DNA of 12,209 nucleotides from a virus (Duplodnaviria > Heunggongvirae > Uroviricota > Caudoviricetes). Of this stretch, positions 2,696-12,209 are shown one piece after another. Each line of letters begins with the position of its first letter. The stretch's first letter is position 1. The stretch lies in the IMG/VR virus record IMGVR_UViG_2531839468_000024; one strand, written 5' to 3'. Below the pieces are notes generated by a model that did no database searches, was not told where the DNA came from, and was given only the letters and a program-made list of their open reading frames with translations. Both the position numbers and the translations under genes were made by a program.

Positions 2696-3197
2696 AATTC
2701 CATCCAGCTTTTTGTTGGTATTGCTGTCGATACGCAAGTTTGAAAGCAATTGCTTTTTCTATAAGTTCGTCAGTTTCACGATCCACTACGGCAGGATCAG
2801 CAAAAAGCAGTCCGGACTCCACCACATCGCCATATTCTTTGTTTAACCCGGCGATCATGTACGTGATGCTTTTTCCGTCACTAATTTCACGATGCAACCT
2901 GAAATCATTAATCCGGATAGCCTCCATAATTGCAGGCACTAGCGCCGTGAACTTTTCACGCTTATCCCTGGTGTCGATAGCCTTCCAGCGTTCGAATATC
3001 TTCACTCGATTAACGCCAAGCGCTCGCTGATCAACCGCGCCACCTTCATCTGTGACACGCTGAACATCGATGTTCGGGCGCTCTTTCAAAGCCCAGAATG
3101 CTTCAGTGATTAATATCGTCGCCTGCTCCTGTGTCATTCCTGGTCGACATATCCAGGCATCCAGAGCCTCACGAGCCTGTTCAGGAGTGATTTTCAT
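2676..3197 (-). CDS. Hypothetical 173-aa early protein at the CII position (possibly YdaT-like)
   Basis: ATG start at 3195-3197; overlaps the Cro-like gene stop by 17 nt and the O-like start by 20 nt, so it sits in a tightly packed rightward early operon. Family assignment is by position only. Confidence 0.45.
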   Translation of the reverse strand: MKITPEQAREALDAWICRPGMTQEQATILITEAFWALKERPNIDVQRVTDEGGAVDQRALGVNRVKIFERWKAIDTRDKREKFTALVPAIMEAIRINDFRLHREISDGKSITYMIAGLNKEYGDVVESGLLFADPAVVDRETDELIEKAIAFKLAYRQQYQQKAGWNYEPSFC

Positions 3198-3408
3198 TGT
3201 TCAACCGCCCCGCCCGCTTCGTCTTACGATATTCGTCATAAACCTTGGGATCATACAGAAGCTCGCCGCCAGATGCCTCCTGTAGACGCATCGCGCGACC
3301 TTCAGGAACCAGCTCTTGCCATTGAGAAACAGCAGATGGGTCAACGCCAGCAGCTTTCGCTACTTTGGCTTTCGTACCGTAAAAATTAATTACGTCTGAT
3401 TTAAACAT
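3181..3408 (-). CDS. dicC: Cro-like small DNA-binding protein (DicC/YdaS family)
   Basis: ORF track start at 3435 is TTG; the internal ATG at 3406-3408 has a strong SD (GGAGGT) and gives a 75-aa product, MFKSDVINFYGTKAKVAKAAGVDPSAVSQWQ..., with an HTH-like segment. Divergent from the repressor. Confidence 0.65.
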   Translation of the reverse strand: MFKSDVINFYGTKAKVAKAAGVDPSAVSQWQELVPEGRAMRLQEASGGELLYDPKVYDEYRKTKRAGRLNNENHS

Positions 3409-3485
3409 CGCACCTCCAATATTGAGTTTTCTCAATGCTAATCACTCAAGGAATCTCAAGTCAAGGGTTATTAAGATATCTAAAT
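3409..3485. promoter_or_regulatory. Divergent promoter/operator region between the Cro-like and repressor genes
   Basis: Inverted repeat ATTGAG-N4-CTCAAT at 3421-3436; further CTCAAG half-sites at 3445-3450 and 3455-3460. The core TTGAGTTTTCTCA recurs downstream of the repressor gene. Confidence 0.55.
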
Positions 3486-3893
3486 ATGAACGAGAAAACT
3501 TTAGGTCAACGCATTAGAGAAAGACGTAAGCAGGTAGGCTTAAGTCAAAACGGTTTAAGCAAAGCTGCTGGCGTATCTGGCTCATCAATTTCATTATGGG
3601 AAAGTGACCATACAGCCCCGCGCGGGCAAAATTTGCATCGCCTCGCCGAGGTATTGCAGTGTTCACCAACCTGGATACTGTTTGGCGACGAGGACAAAAC
3701 ACCAGCTCCCCCTGTTTCACTCGATAGTGCCTTAGACTTATCGGAAGATGAGTTAGAGATGCTGCGTTTGTATCGCGCACTTCCTAAATCAGAGCAACAA
3801 GCACAACTCAGCGAACTCCGCGCCCGCGTTGAGAATTTTAATCGCCTGTTCACCGAGCTATTAGAGGCTCGCAAACGCAACAAGCATCAATAA
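3486..3893 (+). CDS. dicA: DicA-like HTH (XRE-family) prophage repressor
   Basis: ATG at 3486 gives 135 aa. HTH near the N-terminus (QRIRERRKQVGLSQNGLSKAAGVSGSSISLWE) and a conserved VLQCSPTWILFGDEDK segment that I recall from Qin DicA. Weak or absent SD, consistent with a cI-like leaderless or weakly initiated message. Confidence 0.75.
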   Translation: MNEKTLGQRIRERRKQVGLSQNGLSKAAGVSGSSISLWESDHTAPRGQNLHRLAEVLQCSPTWILFGDEDKTPAPPVSLDSALDLSEDELEMLRLYRALPKSEQQAQLSELRARVENFNRLFTELLEARKRNKHQ

Positions 3894-3954
3894 TCATCCC
3901 TTCACAAAATTTTAAAGCCTTACATTTCAATGTATTGGCTTTATCTTGCGCCAA

Positions 3955-4016
3955 TGCTTGAGTTTTCTCATCAAAAAGCCTTGACGAAAAATAATGAGAA
4001 AACTAAATTACCTCCA
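3955..4016 (+). promoter_or_regulatory. Putative repressor-controlled promoter of the early-left (dicB-type) operon with two operator-like sites
   Basis: TTGAGTTTTCTCA at 3958-3970, identical to 3422-3434; inverted variant TGAGAAAACTAA at 3995-4006; candidate -35 TTGACG (3981-3986) and -10 TAAATT (4004-4009) with a 17-bp spacer. Confidence 0.5.
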
Positions 4017-4085
4017 TCAACACACCGCACGGTGTTCTCAGCAAACAGTTCCGCTACCCCGGCGTTAAGGGGAAATGAGGTCAGC

Positions 4086-4238
4086 ATGGATACTATCGAT
4101 CTTGGCAACAGCGAATCTCTGGTATGTGGCGTGTTCCCCAACCAGGACGGTACGTTCACCGCGATGACATATACCAAAAGCAAAACGTTTAAAACCGAAT
4201 CTGGCGCGCGTTGCTGGTTAGCCAGAAACACTGACTGA
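4086..4238 (+). CDS. ydfA: YdfA/YdaF-like (DUF1391) small protein
   Basis: The 102-aa ORF in the track is probably over-extended; the ATG at 4086 with SD GAGG (4077-4080) gives a 50-aa product, MDTIDLGNSESLVCGVFPNQDGTFTAMTYTKSKTFKTESGARCWLARNTD, matching the size and sequence character I recall for Qin YdfA / Rac YdaF. Confidence 0.6.
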   Translation: MDTIDLGNSESLVCGVFPNQDGTFTAMTYTKSKTFKTESGARCWLARNTD

Positions 4239-4249
4239 TGAGGCTGACG

Positions 4250-4615
4250 ATGGAATTTAAAGATTTACCGTCTGATGTACAGAAAACAGCAGCTCATACA
4301 TTGCATTCTGTGCTGCGAGAAATCGGGAAAGATATTGCAAGCGAGCCAGCAAAAGATCTGGCCCGGAAAATCAAGACCGCTTTCGTTGAGCTTTATAATG
4401 TTGGCACTGACTCTGAAACTGTCGAGACCAAGACCGTAAGTTCACCAATATTCTCACTTGAGCCAGGCGTATTATCAGGTGAAATATGCACCGAGATTTC
4501 CAGCGAACTGCTTCCGGTAATACGAGAAGCAATTTGCCGTCGCGGTTTGGATGGAAGTTACGATCATGACGTCCTGCAAGTTCTCAGGACAATGGTGACT
4601 TCACTGGGGATTTGA
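4250..4615 (+). CDS. Hypothetical 121-aa protein (position of ydfB/ydfC in Qin)
   Basis: ATG at 4250 with SD GAGG (4240-4243); the ORF track begins at 4238, overlapping the previous stop. No family recognised. Confidence 0.5.
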   Translation: MEFKDLPSDVQKTAAHTLHSVLREIGKDIASEPAKDLARKIKTAFVELYNVGTDSETVETKTVSSPIFSLEPGVLSGEICTEISSELLPVIREAICRRGLDGSYDHDVLQVLRTMVTSLGI

Positions 4616-4696
4616 TCCCTGCGTCCTCTAACCCGAGTTGTCAGGTTGACCATACGCTTAAGTGACAACCCCGCTGCAACGCCCTCTGTTATCAAT

Positions 4697-4754
4697 TTTC
4701 TGGTGACGTTTGGCGGTATCAGTTTTACTCCGTGACTGCTCTGCCGCCGTTTTT
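4697..4754 (+). ncRNA. dicF: DicF-like small regulatory RNA (ftsZ-targeting sRNA of dicB operons)
   Basis: TTTCTGGTGACGTTTGGCGGTATCAGTTTTACTCCGTGACTGCTCTGCCGCCG followed by a T-run (4750-4754); this matches DicF as I recall it, and it sits in a roughly 300-bp non-coding gap just upstream of the DicB-like ORF. No covariance-model search was possible. Confidence 0.65.
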
Positions 4755-4923
4755 AAAGTGAATTTTGTGATGCGGTGAATGCGGCTAAGCGCACGCGGAA
4801 CAGTTAAAACCAAAAACAGTGTTATGGGTAGATTCTCTGTATCCGGCGTTAATTGTTAACTGGTTAACGTCACCTGGAGGCACCAGGCACTGCATCACAA
4901 AATTCATTGTTGAGGACGCGATA

Positions 4924-5112
4924 ATGAAAACGTTATTACCAAACGTTAATACGTCTGAAGGTTGTTTTGAAATTGGTGTCACTATCAGTAACCCTGTATT
5001 TACTGAAGATGCCATTAACAAGAGAAAACAAGAACGGGAGCTATTAAATAAAATATGCATTGTTTCAATGCTGGCTCGTTTACGTCTGATGCCAAAAGGA
5101 TGTGCACAATGA
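4924..5112 (+). CDS. dicB: DicB-like cell-division inhibitor (62 aa)
   Basis: ATG at 4924 with SD GAGGA (4911-4915); 62-aa product MKTLLPNVNTSEGCFEIGVTISNPVF...; size, position after the DicF-like RNA and sequence match my recollection of Qin DicB. The 97-aa ORF in the track is an upstream over-extension. Confidence 0.75.
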   Translation: MKTLLPNVNTSEGCFEIGVTISNPVFTEDAINKRKQERELLNKICIVSMLARLRLMPKGCAQ

Positions 5113-5393: not shown

Positions 5394-7864
5394 ATGAGTA
5401 AAGTCTTTATTTGCGCCGCTATTCCTGACGAACTGGCAACAAGGGAAGAAGGCGCTGTGGCTGTAGCCACAGCCATTGAAGCTGGCGACGAACGCCGTGC
5501 TCGAGCAAAATTTCACTGGCAGTTCCTGGAACATTATCCGGCTGCTCAGGACTGCGCTTATAAATTTATTGTCTGCGAGGATAAACCTGGCATACCCCGC
5601 CCTGCCCTCGATTCATGGGATGCTGAATATATGCAGGAAAACCGCTGGGATGAGGAGTCTGCTTCTTTTGTCCCGGTTGAGACTGAATCCGATCCGATGA
5701 ACGTCACTTTTGACAAGCTGGCCCCTGAAGTACAGAACGCTGTCATGGTTAAGTTCGACACATGTGAAAACATCACCGTTGATATGGTTATTAGCGCACA
5801 GGAATTGTTGCAGGAAGACATGGCAACATTCGACGGACATATCGTTGAAGCGTTGATGAAAATGCCAGAAGTTAACGCCATGTATCCGGAGCTTAAGTTG
5901 CACGCCATTGGGTGGGTTAAGCATAAATGTATTCCTGGTGCTAAATGGCCCGAAATTCAGGCAGAGATGCGCATCTGGAAAAAACGTCGCGAAGGTGAAC
6001 GCAAGGAAACCGGAAAATACACGTCTGTTGTTGATCTCGCCCGCGCCAGAGCCAATCAACAGTACACTGAAAATTCAACAGGAAAAATCAGCCCGGTCAT
6101 TGCTGCCATTCATCGCGAATACAAGCAGACATGGAAAACACTGGATGACGAACTGGCCTACGCTCTCTGGCCTGGTGATGTGGATGCCGGAAACATTGAC
6201 GGCAGCATCCATCGCTGGGCAAAAAAGAAGTTATCGACAACGACCGCGAAGACTGGAAGCGTATCTCGGCATCAATGCGCAAACAGCCTGATGCCCTTCG
6301 CTACGACCGCCAGACTATTTTTGGCCTTGTCCGTGAGCGTCCGATCGACATTCACAAAGATCCCATAGCACTGAACAAATATATCTGCGAATACCTGACG
6401 ACAAAGGGCGTGTTTGAGAGTGAAGAAACAGACCTGGGCACTGTTGATGTTCTCCAGTCATCAGAAACACAAACTGATGCAGTGGAAACTGAGGTATCTG
6501 ATATCCCAAAAAATGAAACCGCGCCGGAAGCTGAACCATCTGTAGAGCGTGAGGGGCCGTTCTATTTCCTCTTCGCAGATAAGGACGGAGAAAAATACGG
6601 TCGCGCAAACAAACTTTCTGGTCTGGATAAGGCACTGGCTGCTGGCGCCACTGAAATCACAAAAGAAGAATATTTTGCCCGAAAAAATGGCACATACACG
6701 GGCTTACCGCAAAATGTAGATACCGCTGAAGATTCAGAACAACCAGAGCCGATAAAAGTTACCGCTGACGAAGTAAACAAAATTATGCAGGCAGCCAATA
6801 TCAGCCAGCCTGACGCCGATAAGTTGCTTGCTGCATCACGTGGTGAATTTGTTGAAGGGATTAGTGACCCGAATGATCCGAAATGGGTTAAGGGGATCCA
6901 GACCCGCGATTCTGTGAACCAGAACCAGCATGAATCGGAACGGAACTACCAAAAAGCGGAACAAAACAGCACAAATGCGTTACAAAACGAGCCAGAAACG
7001 AAACAGCCTGAACCAGTGGCGCAACAGGAAGTGGAAAAAGTCTGCACCGCCTGCGGTCAGACCGGCGGCGGCAACTGCCCTGATTGTGGCGCGGTGATGG
7101 GCGACGCAACATACCAAGAAACATTCGATGAAGAGTATCAGGTTGAAGTTCAGGAAGATGATCCGGAGGAAATGGAAGGCGCTGAACATCCACACAAGGA
7201 GAACACTGGCGGCAATCAGCATCACAATAGCGATAATGAAACTGGCGAGACGGCAGATCACTCAATTAAGGTGAACGGTCATCACGAAATCACATCCACC
7301 AGCAGGACGTGTGACCATCTAATGATCGACCTTGAAACCATGGGAAAAAATCCTGATGCCCCGATCATCTCAATAGGTGCAATATTTTTCGATCCGCAAA
7401 CCGGAGATATGGGACCGGAATTTAGTAAGACTATCGATCTGGAAACTGCTGGCGGAGTCATTGATCGGGACACCATTAAATGGTGGCTTAAGCAATCACG
7501 CGAAGCGCAATCTGCCATTATGACCGATGAAATCCCGTTAGATGATGCACTGTTACAATTGCGGGAATTTATCGACGAAAACTCCGGTGAATTTTTTGTT
7601 CAGGTTTGGGGAAATGGAGCCAACTTCGACAACACGATTTTGCGCCGTTCATACGAACGGCAGGGGATCCCCTGCCCGTGGCGTTACTACAACGATCGCG
7701 ATGTACGCACAATCGTTGAGCTGGGGAAAGCCATAGACTTCGATGCCAGAACGGCTATTCCATTCGAAGGTGAGCGCCATAATGCACTTGATGACGCCCG
7801 TTACCAGGCAAAATACGTTTCAGTTATCTGGCAAAAACTGATCCCGAGTCAGGCTGATTCTTAA
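5394..7864 (+). pseudogene. YdfE-like large early protein (about 820 aa if fused): unknown N-terminal region, acidic linker, C4 zinc-ribbon-like motif and C-terminal DEDDh (DnaQ-like) 3'-5' exonuclease domain; reading frame broken near 6221-6227
   Basis: Two overlapping ORFs (5394-6368 and 6275-7864); the second frame is open from 6200, and one added base in the A6 run (6221-6226) joins them. Exo motifs: DLET (about 7327-7338), NGANFDNTIL, HNALDDARYQAKY. CTACGQTGGGNCPDCG at about 7045-7092. Confidence 0.65.
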
Positions 7865-7936: not shown

Positions 7937-8065
7937 ATGAGCGAAGTAATCATGATTGTCTCTCCCGGCAAATGGGTATCCGAAGAGCAGTTAATTGCGC
8001 TGAAAGGAATAAAAAAAGGTACGTTAAAAAAGGCCCGGGAAAAATCGTTTATGGAAGGAAGGGAA
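7937..8065 (+). pseudogene. Excisionase-like small gene, 5' fragment (interrupted by IS66-family insertion)
   Basis: ORF reads MSEVIMIVSPGKWVSEEQLIALKGIKKGTLKKAREKSFMEGRE up to the IS boundary at 8066; the same frame resumes after the IS (10773 onward) to a stop at 10893-10895. Confidence 0.5.
8058..8065. repeat. Target-site duplication, left copy (GAAGGGAA)
   Basis: Identical 8-mer directly flanks both IS ends (8058-8065 and 10765-10772). Confidence 0.85.
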
Positions 8066-8148
8066 GTAACCGGCTCATTTAAACCGTCTGGTCTGTTTCC
8101 TCCGGCTCTACAAAAATAATGTCCATCATTTTTAATGGACACTATCGT

Positions 8149-8331
8149 ATGAAACACCGGACCTGGATCACTGAAGCTTTACGTCTTCACTTTGAAGAAC
8201 ATTTACCCCGGGTTGTGGCCGGGCGTCGCCTGAGTGTACCAAAATCAACAGTTTGTAGTATGTTCGTGCGCTTTCGGAGAGCTGGCCTTTCGGTGGCCTT
8301 TGCCCGCAGGCATGTCGGAGCAGGAACTTGA
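8149..8331 (+). CDS. IS-internal upstream ORF of unknown role (HTH-like basic peptide)
   Basis: ATG at 8149 (the track begins at 8119); MKHRTWITEALRLHFEEHLPRVVAGRRLSVPKSTV...; its stop overlaps an ATG at 8331 (TGATG). May be an accessory ORF or chance ORF within the IS left arm. Confidence 0.25.
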   Translation: MKHRTWITEALRLHFEEHLPRVVAGRRLSVPKSTVCSMFVRFRRAGLSVAFARRHVGAGT

Positions 8332-8461
8332 TGCCTGCCTATACGGACAATTTTTCCACGGTACCAGTCGTACGTCCTGAAAGCACCGTTATATCCGAAG
8401 CCCCCGAGGTAAAAAACGTCCCCGGCGGCCCAACTTCCCTTATGAGTTTAAAATCGCCTTA

Positions 8462-8797
8462 GTGGAGCAGTCACTACAGCCCGGAGCCTGTGTGGCGCAG
8501 ATCGCCCGGGAAAACGGAATCAACGATAACCTGCTCTTCAACTGGCGCCATCAATACCGGAAAGGTGGCCTGCTGCCTTCCGGAGAAAATATGCCGGCAC
8601 TGCTTCCCGTGACGTTAACGCCGGAGCCGGATAATAAAATCCCGGCCCCCGCACAGGAACCAGAGCAGATAAATACACCGTCCGACAGTCTGTGTTGTGA
8701 GCTGGTTCTGCCGGCCGGAACTCTCAGGCTTAAAGGTAAACTGACGCCGGCGTTATTACAGACACTTATCCGCGAAATAAAAGGGAGCAGCCACTGA
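8462..8797 (+). CDS. tnpA: IS66-family TnpA (orf1); conserved coding appears to extend upstream of the first in-frame start
   Basis: The first standard start in frame is GTG at 8462, but the same frame is open from 8381 and encodes KKRPRRPNFPYEFKIALVEQSLQPGACVAQIARENGINDNLLFNWRHQYRKG, matching the RRR-x-S-x-EFK...LF-WR-Q pattern I recall for IS66 TnpA. Confidence 0.6.
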   Translation: MEQSLQPGACVAQIARENGINDNLLFNWRHQYRKGGLLPSGENMPALLPVTLTPEPDNKIPAPAQEPEQINTPSDSLCCELVLPAGTLRLKGKLTPALLQTLIREIKGSSH

Positions 8798-9144
8798 TGA
8801 TATCTCTCCCTGCAGGTTCGCGTATCTGGCTGGTTGCAGGTATCACCGATATGCGAAATGGCTTTAACGGCCTGGCATCAAAAGTTCAGAACGTCCTGAA
8901 GGATGACCCGTTCTCCGGACACCTGTTCATCTTCCGCGGACGCCGGGGTGACCAGATAAAAGTGTTGTGGGCTGACAGTGACGGACTGTGCCTCTTCACC
9001 AAACGCCTGGAGCGGGGCCGCTTCGTCTGGCCAGTCACCCGTGACGGCAAGGTGCACCTTACTCCGGCTCAGTTATCCATGCTTCTTGAAGGTATCAACT
9101 GGAAGCACCCGAAACGAACGGAACGCGCTGGAATCCGCATATAA
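8797..9144 (+). CDS. tnpB: IS66-family TnpB (orf2)
   Basis: 115 aa, MISLPAGSRIWLVAGITDMRNGFNGLA...GHLFIFRGRRGDQIKVLWADSDGLCLFTKRLERGRF, the characteristic IS66 orf2 sequence; start overlaps the tnpA stop. Confidence 0.85.
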   Translation: MISLPAGSRIWLVAGITDMRNGFNGLASKVQNVLKDDPFSGHLFIFRGRRGDQIKVLWADSDGLCLFTKRLERGRFVWPVTRDGKVHLTPAQLSMLLEGINWKHPKRTERAGIRI

Positions 9145-9163
9145 CCCGTTGTAAAGTGAGGAT

Positions 9164-10734
9164 ATGGACACCTCACTTGCTCATGAGAACGCCCGCCTGC
9201 GGGCACTGTTGCAGACGCAACAGGACACCATCCGCCAGATGGCTGAATACAACCGCCTGCTCTCACAGCGGGTGGCGGCTTATGCTTCCGAAATCAACCG
9301 GCTGAAGGCGCTGGTTGCGAAACTGCAACGTATGCAGTTCGGTAAAAGCTCAGAAAAACTTCGTGCAAAAACCGAACGGCAGATACAGGAAGCACAGGAG
9401 CGAATCAGCGCACTTCAGGAAGAAATGGCGGAAACGCTGGGTGAGCAATATGACCCGGTACTGCCATCCGCCCTGCGCCAGTCTTCAGCCCGTAAACCGT
9501 TACCGGCCTCACTTCCCCGTGAAACCCGGGTTATCCGGCCGGAAGAGGAATGCTGTCCTGCCTGTGGTGGTGAACTCAGTTCTCTGGGATGTGATGTGTC
9601 AGAGCAACTGGAGCTTATCAGCAGCGCCTTTAAGGTTATCGAAACACAACGTCCGAAACAGGCCTGTTGCCGGTGCGACCATATCGTGCAGGCACCAGTA
9701 CCTTCAAAACCCATTGCACGCAGTTATGCCGGAGCGGGGCTTCTGGCCCATGTTGTCACCGGGAAATATGCAGACCATCTGCCGTTATACCGCCAGTCAG
9801 AAATATACCGTCGTCAGGGAGTGGAGCTGAGCCGTGCCACACTGGGGCGCTGGACAGGTGCTGTTGCTGAACTGCTGGAGCCGCTGTATGACGTCCTGCG
9901 CCAGTATGTGCTGATGCCCGGTAAAGTCCATGCTGATGATATCCCCGTCCCGGTCCAGGAGCCGGGCAGCGGTAAAACCCGGACAGCCCGGCTGTGGGTC
10001 TACGTCCGTGATGACCGTAACGCCGGTTCACAGATGCCCCCGGCGGTCTGGTTCGCGTACAGTCCGGACCGGAAAGGTATCCATCCACAAAATCACCTGG
10101 CCGGTTACAGCGGTGTGCTTCAGGCCGATGCTTACGGTGGTTACCGGGCGTTATACGAATCCGGCAGAATAACGGAAGCCGCGTGTATGGCTCATGCCCG
10201 GAGAAAATCCACGATGTGCATGCAAGAGCGCCCACCTACATCACCACGGAAGCCCTGCAGCGTATCGGTGAACTGTATGCCATCGAGGCAGAGGTCCGGG
10301 GCTGTTCAGCAGAACAGCGTCTGGCGGCAAGAAAAGCCAGAGCCGCGCCACTGATGCAGTCACTGTATGACTGGATACAGCAACAGATGAAAACACTGTC
10401 GCGTCACTCAGATACGGCAAAAGCGTTCGCATACCTGCTGAAACAGTGGGATGCACTGAACGTGTACTGCAGTAATGGCTGGGTGGAAATCGACAACAAC
10501 ATCGCAGAGAACGCCTTACGGGGAGTGGCCGTAGGCCGGAAAAACTGGATGTTCGCGGGTTCCGACAGCGGTGGTGAACATGCGGCGGTGTTGTACTCGC
10601 TGATCGGCACATGCCGTCTGAACAATGTGGAGCCAGAAAAGTGGCTGCGTTACGTCATTGAACATATCCAGGACTGGCCGGCAAACCGGGTACGCGATCT
10701 GTTGCCCTGGAAAGTTGATCTGAGCTCTCAGTAA
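9164..10734 (+). pseudogene. tnpC: IS66-family TnpC transposase, frameshifted (two ORFs, 9164-10354 and 10183-10734)
   Basis: N-terminal coiled-coil/leucine-zipper-like region, CPACGG zinc-finger motif, then ...[11 protein letters not shown] in one frame continuing as IHDVHA... in the next; one added base near 10208 would restore a single reading frame of about 520 aa. Confidence 0.8.
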
Positions 10735-10764
10735 ATATCAATACGGTTCTGACGAGTCGCTTAC

Positions 10765-10772
10765 GAAGGGAA
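10765..10772. repeat. Target-site duplication, right copy (GAAGGGAA)
   Basis: Identical to 8058-8065; directly abuts the IS right end. Confidence 0.85.
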
Positions 10773-10895: not shown

Positions 10896-10929
10896 CTAAA
10901 AGCCACACTAACTAATGAGAGAAGTTGAA

Positions 10930-12209
10930 ATGAAATATCCGACAGGCGTGGAAAACCATGGAGGGAAATTACGTATCTGGTTTGTTTATAAAGGCGTAAG
11001 AGTCAGGGAAAATCTGGGGGTTCCTGACACAGCAAAAAACAGGCACGTTGCAGGTGAACTACGCTCCTCTGTTTGTTACGCAATAAAAACTGGTGTTTTC
11101 GACTATGCAAAACAGTTTCCCTCCTCACGCAATCTGGAAAAATTTGGTGAGGCCCGACAAGATTTAACCATAAAAGAACTGGCTGAAAAATTTCTGGCAC
11201 TGAAAGAAACTGAAGTCGCCAAAACATCACTCAACACATACCGTGCCGTCATCAAAAATATCCTGAGCATAATCGGTGAAAAAAATCTTGCCTCATCGAT
11301 TAATAAAGAAAAATTACTGGAGGTTCGTAAAGAGCTACTGACTGGATACCAGATCCCCAAAAGTAACTATATTGTTACACAACCAGGGAGATCGGCTGTA
11401 ACTGTAAATAATTACATGACAAATCTTAACGCCGTGTTCCAGTTTGGTGTTGATAACGGTTACCTGCCAGATAATCCGTTTAAGGGGATCTCGCCATTAA
11501 AGGAATCAAGAACCATTCCGGATCCTCTTTCGCGGGAGGAATTTATCCGTCTTATCGATGCGTGCAGAAATCAGCAAGCAAAAAATATATGGTGTGTTTC
11601 TGTTTATACTGGCGTTCGCCCTGGTGAGCTGTGTGCACTTGGATGGGAGGACATAGATCTGAAAAATGGAACAATGATGATCAGGAGAAATTTAGCAAAA
11701 GACCGTTTCACGGTACCAAAAACACAGGCGGGAACCAATCGGGTCATTCATCTTATTAAGCCAGCAATCGACGCTCTCCGGAGTCAGATGACATTAACGA
11801 GACTGAGCAAAGAGCATATCATTGATGTTCACCTCAGAGAGTATGGCAGAACAGAAAAACAAAAATGCACCTTTGTTTTTCAACCTGAAGTGTCAGCGAG
11901 AGTAAAAATTATGGTGACCATTTTACCGTTGACTCAATAAGGCAGATGTGGGACGCAGCGATAAAACGTGCCGGACTCCGCCATCGAAAATCATATCAGT
12001 CGAGACATACTTATGCCTGCTGGTCGCTGACAGCTGGTGCTAACCCGGCATTTATAGCAAACCAGATGGGCCATGCAGATGCGCAAATGGTATTTCAGGT
12101 ATACGGAAAATGGATGTCTGAAAACAATAATGCACAGGTAGCTTTGTTAAATACACAGTTAAGCGAGTTTGCCCCAACCATGCCCCATAACGAAGCAATG
12201 AAAAATTAA
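10930..12209 (+). pseudogene. int: Lambda-family tyrosine integrase, frame broken at an A5 run (11904-11908)
   Basis: Two ORFs (10915-11940 and 11946-12209); the downstream frame is open from 11889 and carries the catalytic HxxR (SRHTYA), second His (GHAD) and Tyr (VYGKW) region; the N-terminus PTGVE...LRIWFVYKGVRVRE is typical of lambdoid integrases. Confidence 0.8.

Follow-up and report, generated by a model that had tools for sequence, protein, structure and literature searches.

A 13-bp motif repeated on both sides of the repressor gene in a defective mEp460/Qin-like lambdoid prophage of E. coli almost certainly marks candidate binding sites of a phage repressor, through which the promoters on both sides of that gene would be switched off. 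The prophage makes up the whole stretch of DNA analysed here (12,209 nucleotides; hereafter the window), and comparative analysis leads us to read the three copies of the motif as the operators of a P22/lambda-type immunity region, with a probability of roughly 0.85. What the sequences show is where the sites lie with respect to predicted promoters, how far they are conserved and how they co-vary with the DNA-binding domains. Such an architecture has been described before for phage P22, DicA/DicC of Qin and PaaR2 of CP-933P; novelty is limited to specificity, and the accepted picture of lambdoid immunity is unchanged by the present findings. In the literature searched, the motif string was not found in print, and mEp460 was represented by prophage-typing mentions only.

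Results

Distribution of the repeated motif

The 13-mer TTGAGTTTTCTCA occurs exactly at 3422–3434 and 3958–3970, as a preliminary description of this DNA had claimed, and the inverted near-copy that it had placed over a candidate −10 is present at 3995–4007 with one mismatch in 13. The first copy is contained in the palindrome ATTGAG-TTTT-CTCAAT (3421–3436), and the 14-bp core of the motif is TTGAG-N4-CTCAA. That description had also suggested a search for further copies and held that a similar frequency across the genome would speak against operators; at up to two mismatches, the 13-mer was confined to these three sites in 12.2 kb, compared with a mean of 0.48 in shuffled sequences, among which three sites were reached in 2 of 200. 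The two intergenic spacers (77 and 192 nt) have a 13-nt word in common, while the longest in 2000 shuffles was 12 nt. With the centre left free and up to two mismatches allowed, TTGAG-N4-CTCAA was at chance level window-wide (6 found, 6.3 expected), and five of the six matches fell inside the 269 bp of the two spacers (0.14 expected; Poisson P ~4e-7, a post hoc test). A fourth near-copy at 3489–3501 (CGAGAAAACTTTA), in the first codons of the repressor, was set aside as a coding sequence with 3–4 mismatches and no counterpart in other types.

Table 1 Features of the immunity region, in window coordinates.
Feature	Position	Strand	Description and evidence
Cro-like gene (dicC homologue, 75 aa, P22_Cro family)	3181–3408	−	Pfam P22_Cro, E 3e-16; P22 Cro (PDB 1RZS), E 2e-12
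Immunity cassette (~690 bp, exchangeable)	3315–4005 (approx.)		Identity to other types 30–70%; flanks 93–100%
OR1, perfect palindrome	3421–3436 (14-bp core 3422–3435)		Adjoins −10 and covers predicted +1 of leftward promoter
Leftward PR-like (dicCp-like) promoter, predicted	3435–3464	−	−35 TTGACT (3464–3459), 18-nt spacer, −10 TAGCAT (3440–3435); consensus scan
OR2-like site, TCAAG-GAAT-CTCAA (TCAAGGAATCTCAA)	3446–3459		24 bp centre-to-centre from OR1
OR3-like palindrome, TTAAG-ATAT-CTAAA	3471–3484		25 bp from OR2; adjoins repressor ATG; unmentioned in the preliminary description
Repressor gene (dicA homologue, 135 aa, HTH_3)	3486–3893	+	Pfam HTH_3; ORF list; PGAP-annotated relative
Hairpin 3' of repressor stop codon	3913–3943	+	RNA fold −11.3 kcal/mol, z −2.7
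OL2, TTGAG-TTTT-CTCAT	3958–3971		Directly upstream of −35 of rightward promoter
Rightward PL-like (dicBp-like) promoter, predicted	3981–4009	+	TTGACG, 17-nt spacer, TAAATT; consensus scan
OL1, ATGAG-AAAA-CTAAA	3994–4007		Between −35 and −10, overlaps −10; 36 bp centre-to-centre from OL2
Early-left operon start	4086–5112	+	ydfA 4086–4238; unnamed ORF 4250–4615; DicF sRNA 4698–4749; dicB 4924–5112

Sites between the divergent genes

OR1 occupies the position of K-12 Oc and P22 OR1, and its centre lies ~57 bp ahead of the repressor ATG, which is not the geometry of lambda OR2/PRM. None of the 14 positions of its core varies among nine distinct type-A/A2 sequences, in which flanking bases do vary, and the site is unchanged in two Buttiauxella species. 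The leftward promoter beside it, predicted to function as a PR-like promoter, contains an AGTCAAG block conserved throughout the DicA-family and P22-type loci. The Cro-like gene that this promoter faces is labelled a Cro/CI family regulator in the PGAP annotation of strain A1.

Spacings of 24 and 25 bp separate the sites at 3422, 3446 and 3471, which align with P22 OR1–3, the second and third being weak matches. The CTCAAG half-sites that the preliminary description had reported within 3445–3460 were found at 3445–3450 and 3455–3460, but they are better understood as one 14-bp OR2-like site than as separate half-sites; the first reads TTCAAG in the A2 lineage and is not conserved there. The OR2-like site aligns column for column with P22 OR2 (CAAAG-GAAT-CTTAA) and is mostly kept across genera, with a weak left half and a good right half that carries the type-specific base; its two mismatches to the core put it at chance level as a motif match alone. 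Also at chance level by motif match alone is the OR3-like site, which overlaps the candidate −10 of the repressor promoter (TAAGAT, 3472–3477), retains the P22-type TTAAG half-site and aligns with P22 OR3. It is unchanged in Escherichia type A/A2 and in Buttiauxella, and its 14-bp core is identical in Citrobacter braakii (locus L088), where a flanking base alone differs (T to C). In K-12, DicA did not bind in vivo to the equivalent Om and Oa sites alone (PMC3441716).

Sites upstream of the early-left operon

On the other side of the repressor gene, OL2 aligns with P22 OL2 (TTAAG-TTTT-CTTCA), and its TGAGTTTTCTCA block is invariant across genera. The candidate promoter hexamers that had been proposed here, TTGACG (3981–3986) and TAAATT (4004–4009), have correct coordinates and a 17-nt spacer, and the pair was also chosen by our consensus scan. 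The promoters are consensus predictions, and such predictions are no more numerous overall than chance would give (3 found, 3.6 expected). The position of the PL-like promoter and near-identical hexamers are common to K-12 dicBp, types A2, B and C, and P22-type loci. Spacing between OL2 and OL1 is 35–36 bp in all DicA-family types and P22-type loci, and two clear sites only were found at OL. The 36 bp measured in the window correspond to ~3.4 helical turns, which is not obviously fit for side-by-side cooperativity.

The hairpin between the repressor stop codon and OL2 has a stem that is kept in A/A2 and partly in Buttiauxella, with a poor T-run, and may be a weak intrinsic terminator insulating the PL-like promoter from read-through. 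Downstream, the operon was identified from Pfam DUF1391, an Rfam match to DicF (72.5 bits) and the PGAP annotation of strain A1. Open reading frames, Rfam, a 99.8%-identical annotated locus and the K-12 map agree that the repressor gene is directly upstream of, and co-oriented with, ydfA-dicF-dicB. For K-12, one paper lists the DicA site at dicB as low-evidence and of unknown location (PMC7567609); the present comparison assigns two candidate operator positions to dicBp in all types of the family.

The repressor and its recognition helix

The repressor consists of an XRE/P22-C2-type helix-turn-helix (HTH) domain and a short helical C-terminal domain, and is 56% identical to K-12 DicA over its full length. 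Its N-terminal domain aligns gap-free to the DNA-binding domain of P22 C2 (1ADR, 2R1J; E 8e-16), while Pfam gave no Peptidase_S24 match in the 135 aa; RecA-mediated induction is therefore not expected, since the repressor has no S24 autocleavage domain. The C-terminal domain aligns with its PaaR2 counterpart at 31% identity (E 2e-7), and a PDB search with it returned nothing meaningful; the solved structure of PaaR2 covers the N-terminal domain only, so the oligomerization domain was compared by sequence. No Shine-Dalgarno sequence was found upstream of the repressor gene and paaR2 is leaderless (PMC8630535), which suggests that the repressor mRNA may be leaderless as well.

Type-A repressors carry the recognition helix SGSSISLWES, compared with S/A-[NH]-V-x-[IV]-S-Q-W-E-R in P22, K-12 and types B and C, and the differences fall at positions equivalent to P22 C2 residues 32, 33, 34, 37 and 40. 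TTGAG half-sites are likewise present in L086, L087 and L088, the three other loci whose helix contains ISLWES.

Conservation and co-variation across immunity types

In the 31 loci of type A that were compared (155 kb), matches to the 13-mer with no more than one mismatch were confined to the three offsets, and at the same threshold it was absent from 240 kb of loci with the same flanks and other immunity types. Variable columns were depleted within OR1, OL2 and OL1 (3 of 42) relative to the sequence outside them (48 of 170; Fisher P 0.002). In Buttiauxella, repressor identity is down to 74–76%, yet TGAGTTTTCTCA and TGAGAAAACTAA stand as invariant blocks amid diverged spacers.

Within the DicA family, types A, B, C and K-12 each have their own 6-N4-6 palindrome in the same three places. 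The OR1 core of each type matches the OL of its own or related TTAG types with 0–4 mismatches at positions 31 and 67, whereas type-A cores compared with the OL regions of B, C and K-12 give at best 3–6 mismatches at other positions. Judged from these alignments, a change of repressor between immunity types goes with a change of the candidate operators. One cassette (~3315–4005) contains all of the sites and both HTH domains; its edges were taken from sliding identity against loci L013, L065 and K-12 L001, and it includes the N-terminal HTH part alone of the Cro-like gene (~3315–3408). Phages mEp460_ev081 and HannyBb carry the cassette at 99% identity, and region 3150–4300 is covered at ≥80% in 796 of 5426 complete E. 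coli genomes.

Discussion

Proposed regulation

The preliminary description had proposed an OR/OL-like layout in which one repressor controls both the divergent switch and the dicB-type operon, and the genes, site positions, co-variation and papers on homologues all argue for it. A dimer of the 135-aa DicA-like repressor would recognize TTGAG-N4-CTCAA through its P22-C2-type HTH. Bound at OR1 (3422–3435), it would cover the leftward −10 and +1 and block the Cro-like gene with the YdaT and replication genes behind it; bound at OL1 and OL2, it would bracket the −35, overlap the −10 and block ydfA-dicF-dicB-ydfD-exo-xis-int. The weaker OR2-like and OR3-like sites would complete a tripartite OR with the 24–25-bp spacing of P22, probably permitting cooperative filling, as well as repression of the repressor gene's promoter through Cro or at high dose. 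The same operator set is probably also used by the Cro-like protein, with another order of preference. Binding, repression and cooperativity are inferred, and any OR–OL looping would be through the C-terminal domain, as suggested by its homology to that of PaaR2, which is reported to octamerize (PMC8630535). Experiments on homologues are in agreement: DicA shows sequence-specific binding to Oc, repression of dicC and activation of dicA (PMC3441716), dicBp is repressed by DicA (PMC10448788), ChIP-seq places DicC on both sides of dicA with a palindromic motif TT[ACT]G...C[GAT]AA (PMC11430063), and PaaR2 and YdaS give footprints on OR and regulate a PL-like promoter (PMC8630535).

Alternative readings of the sites

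The sites could instead be mainly operators of the Cro-like protein, or be divided such that the repressor takes G-type TTGAG (OR1, right half of OR2, OL1 and OL2) and the Cro-like protein A-type TTAAG at OR3, a reading that is possible and on balance doubtful. The Cro-like recognition helix, DPSAVSQWQE, is near that of P22 Cro (SDAAVSQWKE), and OR3, which lies over the repressor promoter and start codon and keeps a P22-type TTAAG half-site, has an identical 14-bp core wherever the Cro-like helix is SAVSQW, including the Citrobacter locus L088 with its differing OR1 and repressor helix. In K-12, moreover, Oa is not bound by DicA (PMC3441716) and DicC binds both sides of dicA (PMC11430063). However, all operators are common to both proteins in P22 and lambda, half-sites one base apart make overlapping binding likely, and the Cro-like protein still has to lower the activity of PL and PR, where the sites are of the G type; the conservation of OR3 could also come from the repressor promoter and start codon instead. 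Division of the sites is a refinement of the operator explanation rather than an exclusive rival to it. We tentatively suggest, at well under even odds, that half-site preferences have drifted apart in this immunity type, the repressor favouring TTGAG (OR1, OR2, OL1, OL2) and the Cro-like protein, with its P22-Cro-like helix, TTAAG (OR3), the repressor helix differing from that of P22 C2 by Val33Ser, Gln37Leu and Arg40Ser. If so, the filling order of the operators would be set by one base per half-site, and a natural series for the C2-type recognition code would be provided by P22, K-12, types A, B and C, and Citrobacter L088 as an intermediate.

It is very improbable that the inverted pair at 3958–3971 and 3994–4007 represents an RNA or DNA hairpin, acting as an attenuator or terminator of read-through from the repressor gene, rather than protein sites. 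The fold of 3950–4015 is significant (−11.2 kcal/mol, z −3.8 versus shuffles), but its arms are AU-rich, its 22-nt loop contains the −35, no T-run follows, and the predicted dicBp-like transcript begins downstream of it. Types B, C, K-12 and P22 have unrelated central bases in the two OL sites and hence no equivalent long hairpin, for which reason we rejected a hairpin as the primary function of OL2/OL1; it would also leave the third copy at OR1 unexplained. Still less probable is a recombination or module-junction sequence at the cassette boundary without regulatory function: the right edge of the cassette does coincide with OL1 and the −10 (~4005), but OR1 and OL2 lie well within it and its left boundary falls in the Cro-like coding sequence without a motif copy. 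Junction sequences would be expected to be common to immunity types, whereas the observed ones are type-specific, and no TTGAG core was found at the cassette edges of other immunity types in 240 kb. A chance or low-complexity coincidence of two promoter regions, as might be suspected from AT-rich spacers and from the chance frequency of the degenerate core, is effectively refuted by the lack of a shared 13-mer in all 2000 shuffles, by cores that are invariant over diverged lineages and genera, and by type-specific palindromes that co-vary with the repressor at equal positions.

Implications

The immunity type described here is common in E. coli and would control DicF and DicB, inhibitors of cell division that also change phage susceptibility. 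With the operator known as TTGAG-N4-CTCAA, one could predict which Qin/mEp460-like prophages in one cell share immunity and which are independent, design reporter and derepression experiments for non-K-12 strains, and compare cleanly how P22-C2-type helices read DNA.

Comparison with known systems

As in lambda, the window has a divergent repressor/Cro pair in an exchangeable immunity cassette, with repressor transcription co-directional with PL, PL placed beyond the repressor gene and, as proposed here, one repressor at both operators. Unlike lambda, its repressor has no S24 domain and its OL has two clear sites only, and the operator sequences of the two are without detectable similarity.

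The PaaR2/YdaS/YdaT region of CP-933P (O157:H7) is found at the same place upstream of ydfA in the same prophage family (L022–L025 and others), and likewise has a short CI analogue that lacks a peptidase domain and whose C-terminal domain is homologous, and a divergent Cro-like gene followed by a YdaT gene. For that region, experiments have demonstrated OR and OL operators together with PR-, PRM- and PL-like promoters (PMC8630535). It differs in the N-terminal domain of PaaR2, which is unrelated in sequence at the level tested, in an operator consensus of the GTTTAGTAA type with four inverted repeats at OR, and in a paaA2-parE2 toxin-antitoxin pair between the repressor gene and PL.

With P22 immC the window shares homologous regulators (the C2 N-terminal HTH domain and P22 Cro), 5-N4-5 operators and three collinear OR sites at 24–25-bp spacing, of which OR2 and OR3 are weak candidate matches in the window. 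It also shares OL2 upstream of the −35 and OL1 between the −35 and −10, 35–36 bp apart, with the same −35, and the likeness extends to uncontacted bases (P22 OL2 TTAAGTTTTCTTCA versus TTGAGTTTTCTCAT in the window). The half-site is TTAAG in P22 and TTGAG in the window at OR1, OR2 (right half), OL1 and OL2, helix 3 reads SNVAISQWER as opposed to SGSSISLWES, and C2 has 216 aa with a C-terminal S24 autocleavage domain, whereas the 135-aa repressor ends in a short DicA/PaaR2-type domain. The early-left operon of the window, unlike that of P22, has ydfA, dicF and dicB.

The window follows K-12 Qin in gene order (a dicC-like gene, an opposite dicA-like gene, then ydfA ... dicF, dicB), with flanks 93–100% identical, a repressor of like 135-aa architecture, a candidate operator at the Oc position by the dicC start and two more bracketing the −35 of dicBp. 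Its sequence has the features of a DicA/DicC-type region, namely the divergent pair of a ~135-aa XRE-HTH protein without a peptidase domain and a P22_Cro-family Cro, the operon order and the operator positions. It stands outside the K-12 DicA specificity group in both operator and repressor helix: K-12 has GTTAGT-N4-ACTAAC (Oc = TTGTTAGTCATAACTAACAA), type-A cores show 5–6 mismatches in 12 to K-12 OL at unrelated positions, and the recognition helices of the repressor (SHVSVSQWER in K-12) and of the Cro-like protein both differ. Qin is cryptic, whereas complete phage genomes with type A have also been deposited.

Prophage context

The window carries a lambdoid E. coli prophage that belongs to the Qin/mEp460 group and is defective. 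Apart from three defects, it matches a near-identical prophage in E. coli strain A1 at 99.9%. The first is an IS66-family insertion of 2,699 bp in the excisionase gene xis (orfA, orfB and a frameshifted transposase), which is bordered by an 8-bp target duplication (8058-8065 and 10765-10772) and has no counterpart in the A1 prophage. The other two are single-base indels relative to comparison locus L002, which break the exonuclease and integrase genes; the exonuclease gene is intact in strain A1 and phage HannyBb as a single 2,472-bp ORF. The split genes reflect either a defective prophage or sequencing errors. The 121-aa ORF that follows ydfA had no Pfam match.

Coordinates of genes, predicted promoters and predicted operators
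Feature	Position	Strand	Remarks
queH	428-1114	minus	epoxyqueuosine reductase, DUF208; prophage-borne, adjoins replication module
DUF977, O-like replication and YdaT (CII-like) genes	left part, after queH	minus	
Cro-like gene	3181-3408	minus	75 aa, P22_Cro family
OR1	3421-3436		predicted operator
Leftward promoter	-35 TTGACT 3464-3459; -10 TAGCAT 3440-3435	minus	predicted by consensus scan; 18-nt spacer
OR2-like site	3446-3459		predicted operator
OR3-like site	3471-3484		predicted operator
Repressor gene	3486-3893	plus	135 aa, HTH_3
Hairpin	3913-3943		3' of repressor stop codon; -11.3 kcal/mol, z -2.7
OL2	3958-3971		predicted operator
Rightward promoter	-35 TTGACG 3981-3986; -10 TAAATT 4004-4009	plus	predicted by consensus scan; 17-nt spacer
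OL1	3994-4007		predicted operator
ydfA	4086-4238		right of repressor gene
Unnamed ORF	4250-4615		121 aa, between ydfA and DicF; occupies K-12 position of ydfB and ydfC
DicF sRNA	4698-4749		
dicB	4924-5112		
ydfD, exonuclease gene, xis, int	right of dicB, in that order		exonuclease 5394-7864; integrase 10915-12209
IS66-family insertion	8066-10764		in xis

A repeated core at two predicted promoters

The sequence TTGAGTTTTCTCA occurs exactly at 3422-3434 and 3958-3970, and an inverted copy with one mismatch lies at 3995-4007. The preliminary description had placed this 13-bp core on both flanks of the repressor gene and an inverted near-copy over the rightward -10, and the coordinates it gave were all correct. 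These three sites were the only matches at up to two mismatches in 12.2 kb (0.48 expected), and the two intergenic spacers have a 13-nt word in common, an extent reached in 0/2000 shuffles. The looser palindrome TTGAG-N4-CTCAA (free centre, ≤2 mismatches) was not enriched window-wide (6 observed vs 6.3 expected), and five of its six matches fall within the two spacers (269 bp). Across 31 loci of the window's own immunity type (type A), the 13-mer at ≤1 mismatch was found at the three expected offsets only, and it was absent from 240 kb of non-A loci.

The promoter scan recovered the same rightward -35 and -10 pair as had been proposed. OL2 is immediately upstream of this -35, and OL1 occupies the -35/-10 spacer and overlaps the -10; OR1 adjoins the leftward -10, with the predicted +1 falling within it. 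The hairpin may insulate the rightward promoter from repressor read-through. Since no Shine-Dalgarno sequence was found upstream of the repressor ATG (3486) and a TAAGAT hexamer (3472-3477) ends 8 nt upstream of it, the repressor mRNA may, on sequence grounds, lack a leader, as lambda cI mRNA has been shown to do. A leaderless mRNA was also demonstrated for paaR2 of the related CP-933P prophage (PMC8630535).

Two further repeats were observed. A weak fourth copy, CGAGAAAACTTTA (3489-3501, 3 mismatches), covers repressor codons 2-6 and lacks an equivalent in other immunity types. A perfect 14-nt inverted repeat (3344-3357 ACGCCAGCAGCTTT, 3561-3574 AAAGCTGCTGGCGT) encodes K-A-A-G-V with identical codons on opposite strands in the helix-turn-helix of the Cro-like and repressor genes, and is probably a by-product of related motifs.

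Immunity types and conservation

Among 80 IMG/VR loci retrieved with ydfA as anchor, at least nine repressor types were found upstream of ydfA. Across L003-L082, these unrelated or distantly related modules occupy one slot upstream of a conserved ydfA leader and include DicA types, PaaR2 with the ParE2 toxin-antitoxin pair, and S24 CI-like repressors; shared sequence restarts at CATCAA(C/G)ACACCGCACGG, directly after the -10. Several E. coli/P22-type prophage contigs (L084, L085, L089, L111 and L112) sit in MAGs labelled Bacillota, Veillonella, Collinsella, Segatella and Oxalobacter, most likely through binning contamination.

DicA-like loci fall into four specificity types: A (with sublineage A2, ~91% identical), B, C and K-12. 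A 6-N4-6 palindrome particular to each type occupies the same three places, namely beside the Cro start, upstream of the ydfA-promoter -35 and between that -35 and the -10, with OL2 and OL1 35-36 bp apart centre to centre in all types. Their cores read TTGAG/CTCAA in type A, GTTAGA/TCTAAC in B, CTTAGA/TCTAAG in C and GTTAGT/ACTAAC in K-12, where the core is the experimentally defined Oc (PMC3441716). The type-A OR1 core differed from A/A2 OL sites by 1-3 mismatches in 12, compared with a best of 3-6, at unrelated positions, in B, C and K-12.

In 19 distinct OL and 9 distinct OR sequences of types A/A2, 3/42 columns in operator cores were variable vs 48/170 elsewhere (Fisher P 0.002), and highly variable columns immediately flank the cores. 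In two Buttiauxella species, with repressors just 74-76% identical to type A, the spacers have diverged apart from the blocks TGAGTTTTCTCA (OR1, OL2) and TGAGAAAACTAA (OL1), which show no change.

Identity to types B, C and K-12 was 93-100% up to ~3314 and from ~4005, and 30-70% between, and hence this interval is one exchangeable block. It holds the Cro-like HTH part, OR, the repressor gene, OL2, the -35 and OL1, and is a classical immunity region. Two deposited phages with complete genomes, mEp460_ev081 and HannyBb, carry it at 99% identity, which suggests that the block serves viable phages as well as a decayed relic.

Comparison with P22 and other known systems

The repressor N-terminal domain aligned without gaps to that of P22 C2 (E 8e-16), and the Cro-like protein aligned to P22 Cro (E 2e-12). 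In L112 and L113, whose Cro is identical to P22 Cro, the entire OR and OL are collinear with the window. P22 OL2 TTAAGTTTTCTTCA corresponds to TTGAGTTTTCTCAT, the OL -35 TTGACC to TTGACG, and OL1 TTAAGAAGTCTTAA to ATGAGAAAACTAAA. P22 OR2 (CAAAG-GAAT-CTTAA) aligns to TCAAG-GAAT-CTCAA, and the CTCAAG pair originally listed as extra half-sites, correctly positioned, is therefore better described as an OR2-like site, with the type-specific base in its good half. P22 OR3 ATTTAAGATGTCTTAAC aligns to a palindrome previously unlisted, TTAAG-ATAT-CTAAA (full extent 3469-3486, TATTAAGATATCTAAATA), which adjoins the repressor ATG and is P22 operator-like. This palindrome is identical in Buttiauxella and altered by a single flanking base in Citrobacter braakii. 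OR centre-to-centre spacings are 24 and 25 bp.

Recognition helices read SGSSISLWES in type A, SNVAISQWER in P22 C2, SHVSVSQWER in K-12 DicA and AHVTISQWER in types B and C. The remaining ISLWES-helix loci, from the two Buttiauxella species and C. braakii, also have TTGAG half-sites. In P22 C2-operator structures, the residues that contact bases include Val33 and Gln37. On that basis, Val33Ser and Gln37Leu could plausibly cause the shift from TTAAG to TTGAG, with which they correlate. The OR3 half-site is P22-type and follows the Cro-like protein, whose helix is P22-Cro-like; the repressor helix and the other operators, by contrast, have shifted to TTGAG. From this, partly separated specificities of the two proteins are conceivable, if somewhat unlikely.

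Cross-type, footprint, cassette and P22 comparisons all support the OR/OL-like layout first proposed, in which one repressor would control both promoters. Such operator architecture is described for P22 and lambda. It was described for Qin by Bejar et al. 1988, as that work is cited in PMC10448788, and demonstrated experimentally for CP-933P (PMC8630535). DicA is a repressor of dicC and an activator of dicA; it binds Oc but did not bind Om or Oa alone (PMC3441716). It also represses dicBp, which is relieved by the antirepressor Rem, not RecA (PMC10448788). DicC ChIP-seq sites flank dicA on both sides (PMC11430063). Our literature search found no type-A operator sequence in print. The kind of system is thus well known, and what is new here is its specificity.
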